NCBI GenBank assembly: GCA_041650295.1
Contig: JBAZLM010000002.1
Span: 118,911 to 182,910, forward strand
Direction of reading: 5' to 3'
From: Candidatus Omnitrophota bacterium
GTDB lineage: Bacteria; Omnitrophota; Gorgyraeia; Gygaellales; Profunditerraquicolaceae
Length of the DNA: 64,000 nucleotides
The translations under genes and the position numbers were made by a program. Positions within the stretch are counted from its first letter, which is position 1. Each line of letters opens with the position of its first letter. The notes under the pieces were generated by a model. It worked only from the letters and a program-made list of their open reading frames with translations. It did no database searches and was not told the DNA's origin. Below, one piece after another: positions 23,288 to 33,474 of the stretch.

Positions 23288-23510
23288 ACGCGGGTCCTGC
23301 CTTGTCTTGGTTCTCGCGGGAGCGCTTGTTGCGGCCTAGCGTGCCGCAACTACGCTCGGGTCGGCTGCGTCGCTCTGCCAAGACAAATCTAAGAGGCAAC
23401 CGTGCCCGCCCCGTTGTAAACCAAATCCTTTGAAAATTATAGTTTGCAACGGGGCCCGCTCCTTGCCTCCACGTCCCGCTCGAATCCAAGACAAGTCACC
23501 CGCTAATAGC
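23288..23510. repeat. GC-rich structured repeat, copy 1 (223 bp, includes a 52-nt hairpin insertion)
   Basis: Nearly identical to 33126-33296. 5' 'CCTTGTCTTGG...TCGCGGGAGCG' is complementary to 3' 'CGCTCC...TCCCGCTCGAATCCAAGACAAG'. Internal GTTGCGGC/GCCGCAAC hairpin. Local GC is far above the genome background. Confidence 0.7.
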
Positions 23511-23517
23511 TTAAATT

Positions 23518-23773
23518 AAATAATCCTGTTGGTTTTCGAGTGAGTGTCGATTTTAGCAAAAGCAGCTTGAGTAGCCAAGGTATCCCCGTGGAGTTCGCCA
23601 ACGGTTTAATGGCGAACGACAAAACGGGGACGGCGAAGCTGTTCGAGTAGTTTTTGTTAGAACAAAAACTACGAGTTCTGCAGCCGCTTGGCTACGAAAG
23701 ATCTTTTGCGTCCGCCTGTACTTTGTTGTCGTGGCGGAAATCGACCCGAACGAGAAAAACAACAGGATTATTT
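23518..23773. repeat. 256-bp element bounded by about 35-bp imperfect terminal inverted repeats (MITE-like, or a long-hairpin ncRNA)
   Basis: Left end 'AATAATCCTGTTGGTTTTCGAGTGAGTGTCGATTT'. Reverse complement of the right end 'AATAATCCTGTTGTTTTTCTCGTTCGGGTCGATTT'. Interior folds into nested hairpins (GTTCGCCA/TGGCGAAC, TAGTTTTTGTT/AACAAAAACTA, GCCAAGG/CCGCTTGGC). Confidence 0.55.
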
Positions 23774-23897
23774 CAATGTCTATATCTTGTTGTCGGACTT
23801 AAGTTTTAGGAGGGAAATCATTTGCTCGCAGGGCTTGCGTATGTTATCATAATTATTCATAAATGTTTAATTAATAGAGAGATTTGAGCTTAAAATT

Positions 23898-24959
23898 ATG
23901 TCTTCTGTCCGTGAATATCTTTATAATTTAGTGACTGGTAAGATCAGTGGACCGGTGGCAGTGTTTTTACGTGCTTGCCTGTGGGTGCTCTCACTGGTTT
24001 ATGGTTTAGGGGTTACTATTTTGGCCAATTTTTACCGTGCAAAGGCCAAGCGTTTTAAGGCCAAAGTAATTAGCGTGGGCAATATTACTTTAGGGGGTAC
24101 GGGTAAAACTACTTTAGTGGAATATTTAAGTAGTAAAATAACTTCAGCTGGTCATAAAGTTGCGGTGTTAAGTCGAGGCTATAAGCGTGATACTCGTCGT
24201 CTGGGCACTCAAAGCTTAGGTGATGAGCCTACGATGCTAGTCAAGAATTTGCCGTTAGTAAAAGTGGTAGTGAATAAAAATAGGATTAAAGGAGCGCAAA
24301 CCGCGATTGATGGTTATGCTGCGGATACTTTGATTATTGATGATGGCTTGCAACAATGGAAGATCGCTAAAGACTTAGAGATCGTGACTATTGATGCGGC
24401 TAATCCTTTTGGAAATGGTCGCTTGCTTCCAGCAGGATTTTTACGTGAGCCACTAAGTGCTTTAAAGCGGGCGGATGTTTTTGTTTTGACTCAAGTTAGG
24501 CCAGAGCAGGATATCGTTGAGCTTTACGCCAGATTAAGAGGAATAAATTCTCGAGCTTTAATTGTGGAGTCTATTCATAAAATGGATGGGTTTAATAGTT
24601 TGAGTACTCCGAATGAAACCTTAGATTTAAATTCTTTTAAAAGTAAGATTGCGGTAGTTTTTTCTGGTATTGGTAACCCAGAAGGATTTGAAAAAAATAT
24701 TCAGGACTTAGGAATTCATGTTGCAAAATCGTTTAGGTTTATCGATCACCATGATTATCTGCAGGCGGATATCGATAAAATTATAAAAATGGCCCGTTTG
24801 ATGCAGGCAGATACAATTATTACCACACAAAAAGATGCGGTAAAGATTAGGGAGTTAGAAATTAAAGGTGCACAGATTGTTTGGTTGAATATAAAACTGA
24901 GTATTACTCACAATGAAACAGAATTTAATCGCCGATTACTTAAGTTGTATTCTCTTTAG
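23898..24959 (+). CDS. lpxK: Tetraacyldisaccharide 4'-kinase
   Basis: 'VISVGNITLGGTGKTTLVEYL' P-loop. C-terminal 'DHHDY...TTQKDAVKI'. Confidence 0.8.
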   Translation: MSSVREYLYNLVTGKISGPVAVFLRACLWVLSLVYGLGVTILANFYRAKAKRFKAKVISVGNITLGGTGKTTLVEYLSSKITSAGHKVAVLSRGYKRDTRRLGTQSLGDEPTMLVKNLPLVKVVVNKNRIKGAQTAIDGYAADTLIIDDGLQQWKIAKDLEIVTIDAANPFGNGRLLPAGFLREPLSALKRADVFVLTQVRPEQDIVELYARLRGINSRALIVESIHKMDGFNSLSTPNETLDLNSFKSKIAVVFSGIGNPEGFEKNIQDLGIHVAKSFRFIDHHDYLQADIDKIIKMARLMQADTIITTQKDAVKIRELEIKGAQIVWLNIKLSITHNETEFNRRLLKLYSL

Positions 24960-26832
24960 AGGTTTAAGTTTTTTTACTTATTTTTTACCTCTGGATGTTA
25001 GCCTTTTTTTGGGTCGCAGGCTAGGAGATCTGGTCTATCTTTTTGATCGTAAGCATCGCTTAATTGCTAATGCTAATATTAGAAAGACGGTCGCTAATAA
25101 TTTTGATCTTTCATCTAGCAAAAAGATTACGCGTAAAGCTTATCAGGCGTTTGGTCAAAATATTGTAGAGATTTCGCTTATCCCGCGGATTAATCAAGCC
25201 TATCTAAAAAAATATATTCAATTTGAAAATCAACATTATAAAGATGAAGCCTTTAAGCGGGGTAAAGGAGTAATCTTTTTGATTGTGCACGAGGGTAACT
25301 GGGAGCTTTCCAATATTATCTGTGCGAATTTAGGTTTTCCTTTTGTCTTGTTTATTCGTGATCAAGGTTTTCCCAGATTAAATGCATTATTAAACTCCTA
25401 TCGGCTTAAACAGGGATCTAAGATTATTCATAAAACAGCCGGGGTACGTCAGTTAATTGAAACTTTAAAAGCAAATCAAGGAATTGGCATGACCGTAGAC
25501 CAAGGCGGTAAAGCTGGAGAGATTGTTAAATTTTTTGGCAAAGATGCCTCGATGTCGACTGGCGCAGTAAAGATGGCTTTAAAATACGACTGTGCAATTA
25601 TTCCGATCTTTTATACCCGAATTAATGGCCCACATACCAAAGTAATTTTAGATCAGGTTTTTACGGTTACTAGAAGTGATGACCCGCAAAAGGACTTAAA
25701 AAATAATTTACAGAGATTGATCAATCTTTATGAAAAGTATCTGCGTCAATATCCGCATGAATATTTGTGGACTTATAAAATTTGGAAGTATGGATTAGAA
25801 AGAGAAATTTTGATTTTGTCTGATGGTAAGACCGGACACCTACGTCAATCTGAAGGCTTAGCTAAGTTGATGATTGAGCAATTAGCTAAGCGTAAGATAA
25901 AAACTAATTTATCGGTGGTAGAGATAAAATTTCGCTCGTCGGTTTTTAGATTTATTTTTAATTATTTATCGTTGGCTAAATTGCGTTGTTTGCGTTTTGC
26001 TTTAACTAAAGAAAGCTGGGAGAGGGTAGTTAATTTAAAACCAGATTTTATTATCTCTACCGGTAGCGCAATTAGCGGGGTAAATTACTGCTTGGCTAAA
26101 GAAAATCAAGCTAAGTCGGTGGTGTTGATGCGACCAGCGAAATTTAAGAAATTTGATTTAGTCGTTATCCCTGAACATGATCGGCCGATAAAGGCAAAAA
26201 ATGTGGTGATTACTCAAGGAGCGCTTAATTTAATTGACCTTAATTATTTAAATCAAAGTTCAAAGAGATTAGAGCAATCTGGTTTATTAAAAGCTCCACT
26301 GTCTAATCTTTGCATTGGAATATTGATTGGTGGCAATAGCAAAAAATTTAATATCTCTGTTGATGATATAAAAGAGTTGTCTAGGCGAATTAAGAAATCT
26401 GCACAAAGTTTAAATGCGGATATTTTAATTTCTACTTCTCGGCGTACCTCTTCGCTAGTAGAGCAGGTGATCAAAGAGGAATTTATTAATTATCCTAATT
26501 GTAAATTGCTAGTTGTGGCTAATGAAAATAATAATCCTGATGTTGTAGGGGGAATTTTAGGATTAAGTAATATTGTGATTTGTTCGCCGGAAAGTATTTC
26601 AATGATCTCTGAAGCAGTGGCCGCAGAAAAGTATGTGCTTGTTTATCGGGCCAAAGGCCTAAGCCAGAAACATCAGAAATTTTTAAACCGCTATCATAAG
26701 CAGGGATATATATATTTAAAAGAAATTAATGAGTTAACCGGAGCAATTGAGCAGATCTGGTTACAGCAACCTAAGATTAATTCACCTAAGGATAATCTAA
26801 AAGTAAGTGATGCATTAAATAAAATACTATGA
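24913..26832 (+). CDS. Lipid A lauroyl/myristoyl acyltransferase (LpxL/HtrB family) fused to a C-terminal Elm1/DUF1022-like (GT-B-like) domain
   Basis: N-terminal about 290 aa. 'GKGVIFLIVHEGNWEL' is the HX4E-variant acyltransferase motif and 'YPHEYLWTYK' matches LpxL. C-terminal about 340 aa starts 'ILILSDGKTGHLRQSEGLAKLM', resembling Elm1-like proteins. Confidence 0.6.
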   Translation: MKQNLIADYLSCILFRGLSFFTYFLPLDVSLFLGRRLGDLVYLFDRKHRLIANANIRKTVANNFDLSSSKKITRKAYQAFGQNIVEISLIPRINQAYLKKYIQFENQHYKDEAFKRGKGVIFLIVHEGNWELSNIICANLGFPFVLFIRDQGFPRLNALLNSYRLKQGSKIIHKTAGVRQLIETLKANQGIGMTVDQGGKAGEIVKFFGKDASMSTGAVKMALKYDCAIIPIFYTRINGPHTKVILDQVFTVTRSDDPQKDLKNNLQRLINLYEKYLRQYPHEYLWTYKIWKYGLEREILILSDGKTGHLRQSEGLAKLMIEQLAKRKIKTNLSVVEIKFRSSVFRFIFNYLSLAKLRCLRFALTKESWERVVNLKPDFIISTGSAISGVNYCLAKENQAKSVVLMRPAKFKKFDLVVIPEHDRPIKAKNVVITQGALNLIDLNYLNQSSKRLEQSGLLKAPLSNLCIGILIGGNSKKFNISVDDIKELSRRIKKSAQSLNADILISTSRRTSSLVEQVIKEEFINYPNCKLLVVANENNNPDVVGGILGLSNIVICSPESISMISEAVAAEKYVLVYRAKGLSQKHQKFLNRYHKQGYIYLKEINELTGAIEQIWLQQPKINSPKDNLKVSDALNKIL

Positions 26833-26906
26833 ACCCCGTTACATCTCTAATTTGTGATTTTAGAGATTTAAGGGGTTAGGAATAAAAAAGGAGATGTAAC
26901 GGGGTG
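26832..26906 (+). promoter_or_regulatory. Candidate RBS/start-codon-sequestering RNA switch in the leader of the GT4-GT9 gene
   Basis: CCCCGTTACATCTC (26834-26847) is the perfect 14-nt complement of GAGATGTAACGGGG (26891-26904), which contains part of the SD (AAGGAG 26887-26892) and the G of GTG start 26904. Mutually exclusive alternative: AACCCC (26832-37)/GGGGTT (26872-77) closing the hairpin ATCTCTAA/TTAGAGAT (26844-26868). Confidence 0.4.
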
Positions 26907-28997
26907 AAAATATTACAAATATTACCGGAGCTAAATGTTGGCGGAGTAGAAACTGGAACACTAGATCTTTCGAAATATCTGGTGCGTTTGGGGCATAAAT
27001 CGGTGGTGGTTTCTGCCGGGGGATCATTGGTTAAAGAGTTAGAGGCCAGTGGGGCAAAGCATTATACGCTACCGGTAAATAAAAAATCAATAATTTCTAT
27101 TTATAAATTAATTCCGGTATTAGCCCAGATAATTAAGCAAGAAGAGATTGATATTGTGCATGCTCGTTCTAGGGTTCCGGCTTGGATTGCTTTTTTTGCC
27201 TGCCGCAGAACCAAAGCTATCTTTATTACTACTTGTCACGGTTATTATAAAAAACATTTATTTAGTTCAGTAATGGGCTGGGGCAAAAGAGTAATTGTTT
27301 TAAGCAATGTGATTGCTCGGCACATGATTGAAGATTTTTTTGTACCGCATGAACGAATTAACTTGGTGCCGCGCAGTGTAGATTTAGAAAGATTTAAATA
27401 CTCTGATCCGCAAGTTAAAAGAAAAGATGTTTTTAACGTGGGAATTATCGGTAGGATTACTCCTTTAAAGGGACACTTGCATTTTATTAAAGCGATGGCG
27501 CGTATCTCTAGATTAGTGCCGCGGCTAAAGATTTGGATTGTCGGGGATGCTCCGGCTTCAAAAGAAGCATATAAAGAAGAGGTACAAGTTTTAGTGCGCA
27601 GGTTAGGACTTTGGCATTGTACCGAATTTTTAGGTACGCAACGCGATATTCCGGGAATATTAGCGCATTTGGATTTGGTAGTTTTGGCCACGACTACGCA
27701 TGAAGCATTTGGTAGAGTGGTGGTAGAAGCGATGGCCTCAGGGGTACCGGTGGTAGCCACCAGAGTCGGTGGGGTAGTAGATATTATTGAGGACGGTAAG
27801 GACGGATTTTTAGTACCTCCTGCGGATGCTAAAAGTATGGCCGAGGCAATCATGCGTATTTTTAATGATGCGCAATTAGCTAAAGATATGGCGCTGGCTG
27901 CGTATGAAAAAGTTAAATTAAAATATAATGTAGAGTTGATGGTTAAGAATACTTTGGATGTCTACCGACAGGCTTTGAGTAATTTTAAAATTTTAATTAT
28001 TAAATTTAGTTCTTTAGGGGACATTATTCTTTCTACTGCTGCATTAAGAGCAATTCGAGAAAAGTTTAATAAAGAGAATTTTAAATTAAGTTTTTTAGTG
28101 CAAGAAGAATCAAAGGAGTTGCTTCTTAGAAGTCCTTATATTGATGAGTTGTTAGTTTGTGATTTGAAAAATCGCGATAAAGGTTGGATGGGCTTATGGG
28201 TGATGGGCAAAATTTTAAGAAATAAAGGTTTTGATATTGTTATTGATCTACAGAATAATCGGGCTAGTCATATTTTATCTTATCTGAGCGGTTGTATTAA
28301 TCGTTACGGATACAGTAATAAAAAATTTGATTTTTTACTTAATCATACGATTGTGGATGATAAGCCTCCGATTGATCCAGTTACTCATCAATTCCGTATT
28401 TTAAAGTTGCTGGGGGTGGATCTCTTAGATAATCGACTTGAACTTTGGCCTTCGATTGAAGATGAAAAATTGGTGGATGAGCTTTTAAATGCGCAGTGGA
28501 TTAGCCAGATGCAAAAAATTGTGGGAATTAATATTAGTGCTTCTAAAAGATGGGCCACTAAACGTTGGCCTTTAGAATACTTGACTTGTCTTTGTCAGGA
28601 GTTAGAGCTAAAAGATATTCGGGTAGTCATTACCGGTACCGCTGATGATTTGGATTTTGCCAATGCTTTGGTTAGTTCATTAAAAAATACGAAGATCATT
28701 AATGCTTGTGGAAAAACTTCGATTAATGAGTTAGCAATTTTAATTAAAAAATGTCATGTTTTTATTTCGGCTGATTCCTCACCTTTACATATTGCCTCAG
28801 CCGTAGGGACACCATTTGTGGCATTATTTGGTCCAACTGATCAGCGTCGACATCTACCTCCTGGTAAAAATTGTATTGTGATTAATAAAAATTTAAATTG
28901 TAGCCCTTGTTATAAAACCAAATGTCGTTCTAAGCGCTGCATGATTGAGATTAATCCGGCAGAGGTTTTAGAGGCAGTGCATAAATTACTTAAATGA
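26904..28997 (+). CDS. Fused GT4 glycosyltransferase (N) / GT9 ADP-heptose:LPS heptosyltransferase (C)
   Basis: GTG start with AGGAG RBS. N-terminal 'MKILQILPELNVGGVETGTLDL...EAFGRVVVEAMASGVPVVAT' GT4. C-terminal 'ILIIKFSSLGDIILSTAALRAIREKF...ADSSPLHIASAVGTPFVALFGPTD' GT9. 697 aa. Confidence 0.7.
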   Translation: MKILQILPELNVGGVETGTLDLSKYLVRLGHKSVVVSAGGSLVKELEASGAKHYTLPVNKKSIISIYKLIPVLAQIIKQEEIDIVHARSRVPAWIAFFACRRTKAIFITTCHGYYKKHLFSSVMGWGKRVIVLSNVIARHMIEDFFVPHERINLVPRSVDLERFKYSDPQVKRKDVFNVGIIGRITPLKGHLHFIKAMARISRLVPRLKIWIVGDAPASKEAYKEEVQVLVRRLGLWHCTEFLGTQRDIPGILAHLDLVVLATTTHEAFGRVVVEAMASGVPVVATRVGGVVDIIEDGKDGFLVPPADAKSMAEAIMRIFNDAQLAKDMALAAYEKVKLKYNVELMVKNTLDVYRQALSNFKILIIKFSSLGDIILSTAALRAIREKFNKENFKLSFLVQEESKELLLRSPYIDELLVCDLKNRDKGWMGLWVMGKILRNKGFDIVIDLQNNRASHILSYLSGCINRYGYSNKKFDFLLNHTIVDDKPPIDPVTHQFRILKLLGVDLLDNRLELWPSIEDEKLVDELLNAQWISQMQKIVGINISASKRWATKRWPLEYLTCLCQELELKDIRVVITGTADDLDFANALVSSLKNTKIINACGKTSINELAILIKKCHVFISADSSPLHIASAVGTPFVALFGPTDQRRHLPPGKNCIVINKNLNCSPCYKTKCRSKRCMIEINPAEVLEAVHKLLK

Positions 28998-33125: not shown

Positions 33126-33296
33126 ACGCGGTTGCCTTGTCTTGGTTCTCGCGGGAGCGCTTGTTGCGGCCCAGCGTGCCGCAACTACGCTCGGGTCGGC
33201 TGCGTCGCTCTGCCAAGACAAATCTAAGGGGCATCCGTGCCCGCTCCTTGCCTCCACGTCCCGCTCGAATCCAAGACAAGTCACCCGCTAACAGCT
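33126..33296. repeat. GC-rich structured repeat, copy 2 (171 bp, lacks the 52-nt insertion)
   Basis: Direct repeat of 23288-23510, same orientation. Begins 8 nt after the stop of the GT9-GT9 gene. Confidence 0.7.
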
Positions 33297-33474
33297 TTCT
33301 GGCTTTTGCTGGAGGCGCGTTCAAAGTTTTCGGCTGGCTAACTTTTCGTTAGTGTGCAAGGAATTACGTCGAGTGAAGGCGGTGTCCATCTAGCGTAAGG
33401 TATAAGCCGTAACGAGACGTAAGCCGCAGCACACGGCGAAAACTTTGAGCGCCGGAAGCAAAAGACGGAAAGCT
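33293..33474. repeat. About 180-bp long imperfect hairpin element (candidate structured ncRNA or MITE-like element)
   Basis: Arms 'GCTTTTGCTGGAGGCGCGTTCAAAGTTTTCGGC' (33302-33334) and 'CGGCGAAAACTTTGAGCGCCGGAAGCAAAAG' (33435-33465) are near-complementary. Outer AGCTTTC/GAAAGCT pairing. Inner GTGTGC...GCACAC and TTACGTC/GACGTAA stems. Confidence 0.5.

Follow-up and report, generated by a model that had tools for sequence, protein, structure and literature searches.

The junction described here lies in a 64,000-nt stretch of DNA from Candidatus Omnitrophota bacterium (contig JBAZLM010000002.1, positions 118,911 to 182,910), referred to below as the window, and it separates two lipopolysaccharide (LPS) genes. 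All window features are on the forward strand. The upstream gene (24913-26832), taken from the list of open reading frames (ORFs), encodes an LpxL-like lipid A acyltransferase in fusion with an ELM1-like domain (Pfam PF03279 and PF06258), and its stop codon TGA is located at 26830-26832. The downstream gene (26904-28997) starts with GTG and encodes a GT4-GT9 fusion protein, which is listed as lipopolysaccharide heptosyltransferase II in public sources. The genes are called lpxL-ELM1 and GT4-GT9, and the subject of this study is the palindromic leader between them.

The leader contains two long complementary arms. CCCCGTTACATCTC (26834-26847) and GAGATGTAACGGGG (26891-26904) are reverse complements of each other without a mismatch, as already noted in a first-pass annotation of this DNA, and the match extends to 15 Watson-Crick pairs (26833-26847 / 26891-26905) or, with one G-U pair, to 16 pairs (26833-26848 / 26890-26905). 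The exact 14-mer does not occur again within the window. The 5' arm (26833-26848), which is the strand opposite the Shine-Dalgarno (SD) sequence as well as the start codon, begins 1 nt past the stop codon of lpxL-ELM1. In the 3' arm (26890-26905), pairing involves the GGAG of the SD sequence, the spacer of 10 nt and the first two letters, G and T, of the start codon GTG (26904-26906). The SD sequence AAGGAG itself was located at 26888-26893, 10 nt before GTG, and not at 26887-92 as first annotated. An ATG-TAA start-stop pair (26894-26899) is also found within the 3' arm immediately past the SD sequence (AGGAGATGTAA), at a spacing that is too short for normal initiation.

Sequestration of the SD sequence and start codon, which had been proposed from the arms, is indeed predicted by folding: the leader RNA reached -30.6 kcal/mol, compared to a mean of -14.6 for shuffled sequences (z = -5.2), and none of 200 shuffles equaled it. 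The mutually exclusive hairpin that had been proposed as well could also be found. Its stem AACCCC/GGGGTT (26832-37 / 26872-77) encloses ATCTCTAA/TTAGAGAT; as TTAGAGAT is located at 26860-26867, the inner loop has 9 nt instead of 8. This alternative hairpin (26832-26877) is formed when an internal imperfect copy of the right end (TTAGAGATTTAAGGGGTT, 26860-26877) pairs with the 5' arm. With the SD sequence and start codon constrained to be single-stranded it reached -19.3 kcal/mol, and the sequestering helix is 11.3 kcal/mol more stable than this open form.

The inserted element and its copies

About 80 orthologous loci (numbered with L below) were gathered and the junction between lpxL-ELM1 and GT4-GT9, termed J1, was measured in each of them; J2 denotes a further junction. 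The three closest relatives fetched (93, 88 and 87% protein identity; L103-L106) have no leader and no spacer at J1, only an empty ATGA overlap, which in L103 reads ...ACTATGAAAATATTACAA; ...AAATAAAATACTATGAAAATATTACAAATATTACC. In an alignment of filled and empty sites, the window corresponds to the L103-type empty sequence plus a 71-nt core and a second TGAA, with nearly identical flanks, and exactly this core is absent from L103, L104, L105, L106, L023, L028, L031 and L034. The core is located at 26834-26904, or 75 nt when the duplicated TGAA is included.

The left copy of TGAA (26830-26833) holds the stop codon of lpxL-ELM1 and preserves the ATG of the ancestral ATGA overlap (26829-26831), which is the start codon of GT4-GT9 in the relatives with an empty site. 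The right copy (26905-26908) forms the new start GTG-AA together with the terminal G of the element. The N-terminus of GT4-GT9, (V/M)KILQILPELNVGGVE, is the same as in the empty-site relatives, and the protein still begins with (f)M-K-I-L-Q as in L103. An SD sequence is absent at the empty-site junctions; AAGGAG is contributed by the purine-rich right end of the element. The longest internal ORF is a read-in ORF of 16 codons, and the element contains no transposase gene.

Combining these observations, the alignments identify the two arms as the terminal inverted repeats of a 71-nt non-coding palindromic element that is dispersed in Candidatus Omnitrophota. [quoted passage not shown] Judged from the filled and empty sites, it inserted into the ancestral stop/start overlap (ATGA-A) of lpxL-ELM1 and GT4-GT9 and duplicated TGAA, and this insertion is recent in the lineage of the window. 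By its construction the insertion spares both genes, as the stop codon and the old ATG were retained, the new GTG start leaves the protein N-terminus unchanged, and an SD sequence was added. The complementarity of the arms is therefore not fortuitous, as had been argued, and the reason for it is that they are the two ends of an inserted repeat.

Among the gathered loci, J1 was found as a 4-nt ATGA overlap in 39, as a gap of 0-18 nt in 10, filled with unrelated, mainly palindromic spacers in 13, with the architecture of the window in about 18, and as a remnant in one (L024). The window-type junctions consist of a TGA stop codon and one A, followed by an arm starting with CCCC, 16-255 nt of variable interior, a complementary arm that ends in GGGG, and the TG of the start codon. 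Several types of arms were observed in which both sides change together (CCCCGCACCTTCT, CCCCGTTAGAAAC, CCCCGCCCTTCC, CCCCATCCTCTCCTTT and CCCCGTTACATCTC of the window). The same type is found at both junctions of a locus in L064 and L083 (type I) and in L084 (type II).

The same ends (CCCCG...CGGGG) and subterminal sequences (TTTATATTCA... and ...GAATAAAGGAG) recur at other gene junctions of Omnitrophota. Copies were identified at the junction of GT4-GT9 with the following GT4 gene (L064, L083, L084, L029, L001, L048 and others) and at a later junction in L063. In L108 (GCA_002771195.1) copies are located at the DS-like to PfkB and KdsA to KdsD junctions and in the PfkB to KdsB spacer, and at least 8 copies were counted in 21.6 kb of this genome (topA, waaA, GT9, four junctions or spacers and the N-terminus of a deacetylase). 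The family is not restricted to intercistronic positions: in-frame copies add 19 aa to the GT9 domain of L066, 19 aa to TopA and 17-18 aa to WaaA of L108, and a copy is carried in the N-terminal codons of the deacetylase in L069, L072, L100 and L108. An identical 55-nt copy is present at two unrelated junctions of two genomes (L084 4592-4646 and L108 17967-18021). The 4-nt flanks are identical on both sides in 19 of the 28 catalogued copies and depend on the site (TGAA, TTTA, TCTA), and the arm length is 10-19 nt in all of them. Copies of one genome share quirks; for instance, both the J1 copy of L066 and its copy in the coding sequence have five C's. No orientation bias of the junction copies could be established, and the interiors of non-junction copies align poorly in either direction.

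A second copy in the window, CCCCGTTGTAAAC - 20 nt - GTTTGCAACGGGG, has a 46-nt core (23409-23454) flanked by a duplicated CCCG (23405-08 and 23455-58). It is located inside one copy of a GC-rich repeat (23298-23512), and the other window copy of this repeat (33133-33297, 96-98% identical) has the empty paralogous site with a single CCCG at 33240-33243.

Several known types of element were considered as the origin of the family. For an IS5-type element, the end (GGAAGGTGCG...) was checked on E. coli K-12, where IS5A (L113, NC_000913.3 273955-275149) has the ends GGAAGGTGCGAATAAG... and ...CTTGTTCGCACCTTCC. IS5 and the type I element ends share the 9-mer GAAGGTGCG, with GAATAA nearby, in opposite polarity relative to the tip, and this origin was rejected; the shared stretch is probably a coincidence with an SD-like sequence. 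Integron attC sites, which are imperfect palindromes between ORFs with GTTAG/CTAAC, were rejected since the order of core sites does not fit, the LPS genes are syntenic and not cassettes, and copies occur inside genes. An IS200/IS605 or REP/RAYT origin is disfavored, as the flanking 4-mers vary and are duplicated; REP/REPIN-RAYT elements are recognized by the lack of a target duplication, a conserved tetranucleotide at the 5' side and a RAYT gene in the same genome.

Other repeats were observed in the same regions. The GC-rich palindromic repeat of ∼170 nt, with the ends CCTTGTCTTGG...CCAAGACAAGTCACCCGC, is also present in L103 (16437-16598 and 6422-6652), with traces in L111 and L066. It folds to -99.8 kcal/mol (z = -6.6) and has no Rfam match; it is probably another non-coding mobile repeat or possibly a structured RNA. 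The rest of the 625-nt spacer before lpxK (23513-23897) is 83% conserved with the syntenic spacer of L103 and absent from L105 and L106, and within it are a hairpin (23647-23672) and an inverted repeat of 14 nt whose halves are far apart (23518-31 / 23760-73).

In relatives, several other palindromic repeat families without relation to this one occupy junctions between the cistrons of the operon, at J1 of L063, L068 and L072 and in L056, L057 and L078, with further such spacers in L107 (12095-12300, 14240-14420, 15420-15600) and L108 (11595-11710, 13600-13790, 19900-20055). Examples are AATGACAAA/TTTGTCATT, GATTACACAGATT/AATCTGTGTAATC, TATCAGG/CCTGATA and AGCGTATAGCG, and where such unrelated palindromes occupy J1 the upstream stop codon is TAA or TAG. 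In L027 (107-206), L048 (2432-2501) and L037 (4592-4740), an extra imperfect copy of the right end is found 5' of the 5' arm, or two elements are nested or in tandem; at these places lpxL-ELM1 or the respective upstream gene ends with TAA.

Conserved proteins contain additional insertions of 7-27 aa that keep the frame, as in the domain linker of GT4-GT9 (L062 1861-1950, L072 3653-3742, L069 3653-3760, L088 2725-2814) and in topA (L108 1481-1588). Four of the five that were folded (L062, L069, L088 and L108 topA) consist of hairpin-forming DNA, e.g., CCCGAATGTAGTG...CACATTCGG, and the linker insertion of L072 folds weakly (-12.0 kcal/mol). The hairpin-forming insertions suggest more RPE-like families in Omnitrophota.

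Predicted translation across the element

The region has ∼37% G+C and its genes are densely packed on one strand; neighbors of the two genes are waaA, lpxK, more GT4 and GT9 genes, kdsB, kdsA and kdsD. The lpxK gene (23898-24959) and lpxL-ELM1, called from its first ATG, overlap by 47 nt (24913-24959), and they are annotated likewise in L103, L105 and L106. An SD-like motif precedes only roughly a third of the window genes, and it is missing from 20 of the 29 genes which overlap or nearly abut their upstream neighbor. In the empty-site relatives, the ATG retained at J1 is the start codon that termination-reinitiation uses without an SD sequence.

Re-initiation is effective at -4 overlaps and is lost past ∼20-38 nt (PMC10666635, PMC6728339), and because of this limit an insertion of 75 nt should break the coupling of the two genes unless it is bridged. 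A candidate bridge is the read-in ORF (MNPVTSLICDFRDLRG, 26829-26879, stop codon TAG at 26877-26879), which starts at the retained ATG and extends through the entire 5' arm and the internal copy; its end is separated from the SD sequence by 8 nt and from GTG by 24 nt. In all 19 junction copies examined the ATG is retained and its ORF spans the 5' arm, and in all 19 the sequestering helix is the minimum-free-energy structure, by 6-30 kcal/mol over any fold with a free SD sequence. Where the frame of this ORF leads to an xTGA overlap with the new start, it is stop-free for 17-43 codons of AT-rich sequence in 8 of 11 copies (2.1 expected, P ∼2.5e-5), and both of the remaining forward frames contain stops in every case. 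An unsupervised rescan gave 6 open relay frames of 8 (1.7 expected, P = 3.5e-4); the copies are not fully independent, so that both P values are optimistic.

Such relay frames have been annotated by public gene callers. In L107, a mini-ORF of 26 aa with 4-nt overlaps at both ends is annotated in the J1 copy of the family, and a mini-ORF of 53 aa, again with 4-nt overlaps at both ends, is annotated across a different palindromic spacer at J2. The J1 copy of L084 lacks an SD sequence and has a relay frame only. The excess of stop-free frames and this SD-less copy point to selection on translation through the element.

RNA-unfolding coupling is established for rpmI-rplT, MS2 and f1 VII-IX (PMC12548453), and a similar sequence of events can be proposed for the window. 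In the polycistronic mRNA the two ends of the element would pair and hide the SD sequence and start codon, by which free 30S subunits would mostly be kept out and GT4-GT9 expression would then rely on ribosomes coming from lpxL-ELM1. When a ribosome terminates 1 nt before the helix and UGA (26830-32) occupies its A site, its mRNA channel would already contain about 26833-26841, and with it the first 5-9 nt of the 5' arm. The retained AUG (26829) could then serve this ribosome for re-initiation in the same way as the ancestral AUGA; it would translate the ORF of 16 codons, and its passage across the 5' arm and the internal copy would unzip the helix and expose the SD sequence and GUG. Because the ORF stops 24 nt before GTG, the final step would be an SD-dependent initiation on transiently open RNA, in competition with refolding. 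The translational coupling of the two LPS genes would in this manner outlive the 75-nt insertion. Coupling via the relay ORF and unfolding of the helix is, in this model, the most likely effect of the element. Taken as one explanation, a mobile palindromic element at the junction which most likely couples the two cistrons and does not act as a sensor is considered probable.

Alternative explanations

Several observations weigh against this explanation, in addition to the dependence among copies mentioned above. Coupling and translation of the short ORF are inferred from sequence and predicted folds. When the stretch covered by a terminating ribosome was masked in silico, GUG was freed and the SD sequence was still paired. 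A stop-to-start distance of 24 nt, as in the window, gives poor re-initiation (PMC10666635), and a stable structure directly past the stop codon cut re-initiation in a synthetic E. coli operon (PMC7518266). The 64-kb window contains only two copies, and 22 kb from each of the three closest relatives contained none. A partner transposase did not turn up, and no search aimed at one was made.

The helix itself may also not be under selection, and this leads to the strongest alternative, a neutral selfish insertion. Here the hairpin would be a by-product, and GT4-GT9 would be translated independently of the upstream gene by ordinary SD-dependent initiation, helped by breathing or helicases, or after RNA processing. 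The arms of copies in coding sequences are equally perfect, and perfect arms could result from recent insertion or from correction of palindromes at the DNA level. Quasi-palindrome correction of DNA is a process which could keep such arms perfect. In several older junction copies the arms are decayed (L045, L034, L066 J2, L027 J2), and at J1 of L024 only AAAGGAGATGTAACGGGG is left, which is identical to the right end in the window; the 5' arm is gone and the SD sequence and start are kept. The closest relatives also live without the element. However, a helix of -30.6 kcal/mol, about 11 kcal/mol more stable than the open form, would strongly lower free initiation, and the excess of stop-free relay frames and the SD-less copy of L084 argue for selection on translation across the element. 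It is therefore regarded as unlikely, though as the most serious competitor.

Alternatively, or in addition to coupling, and by analogy with Correia transcripts, the 16-bp helix and the inner pairs might be cleaved by an RNase III-type enzyme, which would split the cistrons, remove the 5' arm and thereby free the SD sequence, or both. The long perfect duplex formed by MITE ends would suit this, and RNase III cuts the inverted-repeat hairpins of Correia elements (PMC10969869). Such a site leaves the stop-free relay frames unexplained. RNase III usually favors about two helical turns and the window helix is shorter. Cleavage of this kind is considered improbable.

The covariation of the arms is strong: in an alignment of the arms only, 91.8% of the cells are paired, 12 of the 16 pairs have changed on both sides, and none of 500 shuffles was as good. 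This would be expected from an ancient, non-mobile regulatory RNA helix which has been kept at orthologous junctions by compensatory substitutions, and the differences between the arms of L001, L002 and the window were first read in this way. That reading was dropped, as the states are patchy, copies occur elsewhere and the closest relatives are empty. In an ordering by protein distance, the states of J1 are scattered among proteins of ∼90% identity (L038 filled, L030 and L045 empty), and close relatives include L083 with type I arms, L084 with type II arms, L070 with an empty site and L063 with another palindrome. Copies with flanking duplications at non-orthologous sites, including coding sequences, and the identical 55-nt copy at unrelated junctions also argue against it, and an ancient helix is thus very improbable. 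The first-pass annotation had suggested examining the conservation or covariation of the arms in orthologous leaders; the arms covary across the copies of the family, and the leader as such is not conserved.

The first-pass annotation had further suggested that sequestering helix and alternative hairpin form a switch resembling an RNA thermometer or a riboswitch, by which an envelope glycosyltransferase would be tuned to temperature or a ligand. The two mutually exclusive pairings are present, and the internal copy which forms the alternative hairpin is found in about two thirds of the family copies; the hairpin is lacking in L002, L027, L029, L048 and L083 J1. The sensor did not withstand the comparison, as the closest relatives have no leader, the helix is perfect, and the predicted probability of the SD sequence and start codon being unpaired was unchanged from 10 to 65°C in an in silico melting. 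The loops (16-255 nt) are not conserved and contain no conserved aptamer. No Rfam family came near threshold, either for the whole window at gathering thresholds or for the leader at E-value thresholds, and the best matches were generic hairpins and miRNA precursors; Lst_thermometer scored 22.7 bits, compared to a gathering score of 126. The proposed dedication to a cell-envelope glycosyltransferase is contradicted by the same element at unrelated junctions and within coding sequences of other genomes, and a sensor of either kind is hardly credible. An intrinsic terminator or attenuator of the upstream gene, which a stable hairpin immediately past a stop codon might have suggested, can practically be dismissed, since there is no U-tract (GAAAAUAUUACAAAU; tail GAAAAUAUUAC), a scan with consensus terminators and promoters found nothing at 26830-26910, and GT4-GT9 is part of the same dense operon.

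Known systems and implications

The preferred explanation, an inserted palindromic element with coupling as its most likely effect, was compared with several known systems. Prokaryotic MITEs such as the Correia/NEMIS elements of Neisseria, ERIC and RUP are alike in their small size, lack of coding capacity, terminal inverted repeats and short duplications, and in their dispersed copies, filled and empty sites, co-transcription with neighboring genes and hairpins in the mRNA (PMC10969869). The window family differs in its unrelated sequence and in having no known partner insertion sequence. The roles listed for MITEs are promoters, IHF sites, RNase III sites, gene inactivation, sRNAs and terminators, and an insertion into an ATGA overlap that rebuilds start codon and SD sequence and has a relay ORF is not described in this review (PMC10969869). 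In full-text searches of the literature no description of an Omnitrophota palindromic family or of translational coupling linked to MITEs was found, and the 2024 MITE review lists no such role. RPEs are alike in their in-frame insertion into housekeeping genes that are unrelated to each other, where the additional peptide is tolerated (PMC10969869), as seen here for topA, waaA and GT9. They are likened to the Omnitrophota family by this insertion habit; RPEs have ∼150 bp and occur in another phylum, compared to cores of 26-71 nt (up to ∼280 nt) here, and they are intragenic, whereas the window copy is intercistronic.

In coupling by unfolding (rpmI-rplT, MS2 coat-lysis/replicase, f1 VII-IX), a helix likewise confines the downstream ribosome binding site, and as the ribosomes of the upstream cistron travel over its other strand, initiation downstream depends on translation upstream (PMC12548453). 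In the window the masking strand is located just outside the upstream gene, 1 nt past its stop codon and within a short relay ORF, the helix was brought by a mobile element, and the coupling is putative. As in termination-reinitiation at ATGA/TGATG, -4 overlaps are present at the ancestral junction and at both ends of the relay ORFs of relatives, and no coupled arrangement is more common than this one (PMC6728339, PMC10666635), but the chain is broken in the window, where the relay ORF stops 24 nt before GTG. Ribosome termination structures are similar in being stable structures right after a stop codon (PMC7518266). They have been proposed to insulate against re-initiation, whereas the window helix also holds the SD sequence and start codon of the next gene, which must still be expressed. 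RNA thermometers (ROSE, fourU) share the base-paired SD sequence and start codon in a hairpin. Thermometers are short imperfect helices which melt at physiological temperatures, unlike the window helix, which is perfect over 15-16 bp and predicted to be stable to 65°C.

The novelty lies in a family design that is compatible with gene junctions, and not in a new class of regulatory RNA. For annotation, this means that what looks like a textbook translational switch before an LPS gene was left there by a mobile palindrome, and scans for thermometers or riboswitches in uncultured phyla should check repeat families and empty sites first. Operons of Omnitrophota are colonized by small palindromic elements, both at cistron junctions and in frame in essential genes. 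The copies at junctions rebuild a start codon and an SD sequence and often hold stop-free relay ORFs with -4 overlaps on both sides, which suggests a way for compact genomes to withstand insertions that by themselves would interrupt coupling by termination-reinitiation, and the copies provide a natural series (46-281 nt, with or without an SD sequence, with or without a relay frame) for models of unfolding and re-initiation.

More tentatively, the family could consist of mobile elements which are adapted to operon junctions, prefer TGAA and hence ATGA-A overlaps, and carry a portable translation-coupling cassette. This reading is conceivable but somewhat doubtful. The cassette would comprise the terminal G that rebuilds GTG, the SD-like right end and the anti-SD left end, through which the new start would come to depend on upstream ribosomes, often with a stop-free frame of relay length and -4 overlaps at both ends. 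If this were true, the family would represent a transposon that inserts into gene-dense genomes without disturbing translation, and nature would have provided with it an experiment on the distance over which, and the means by which, bacterial ribosomes pass between cistrons.

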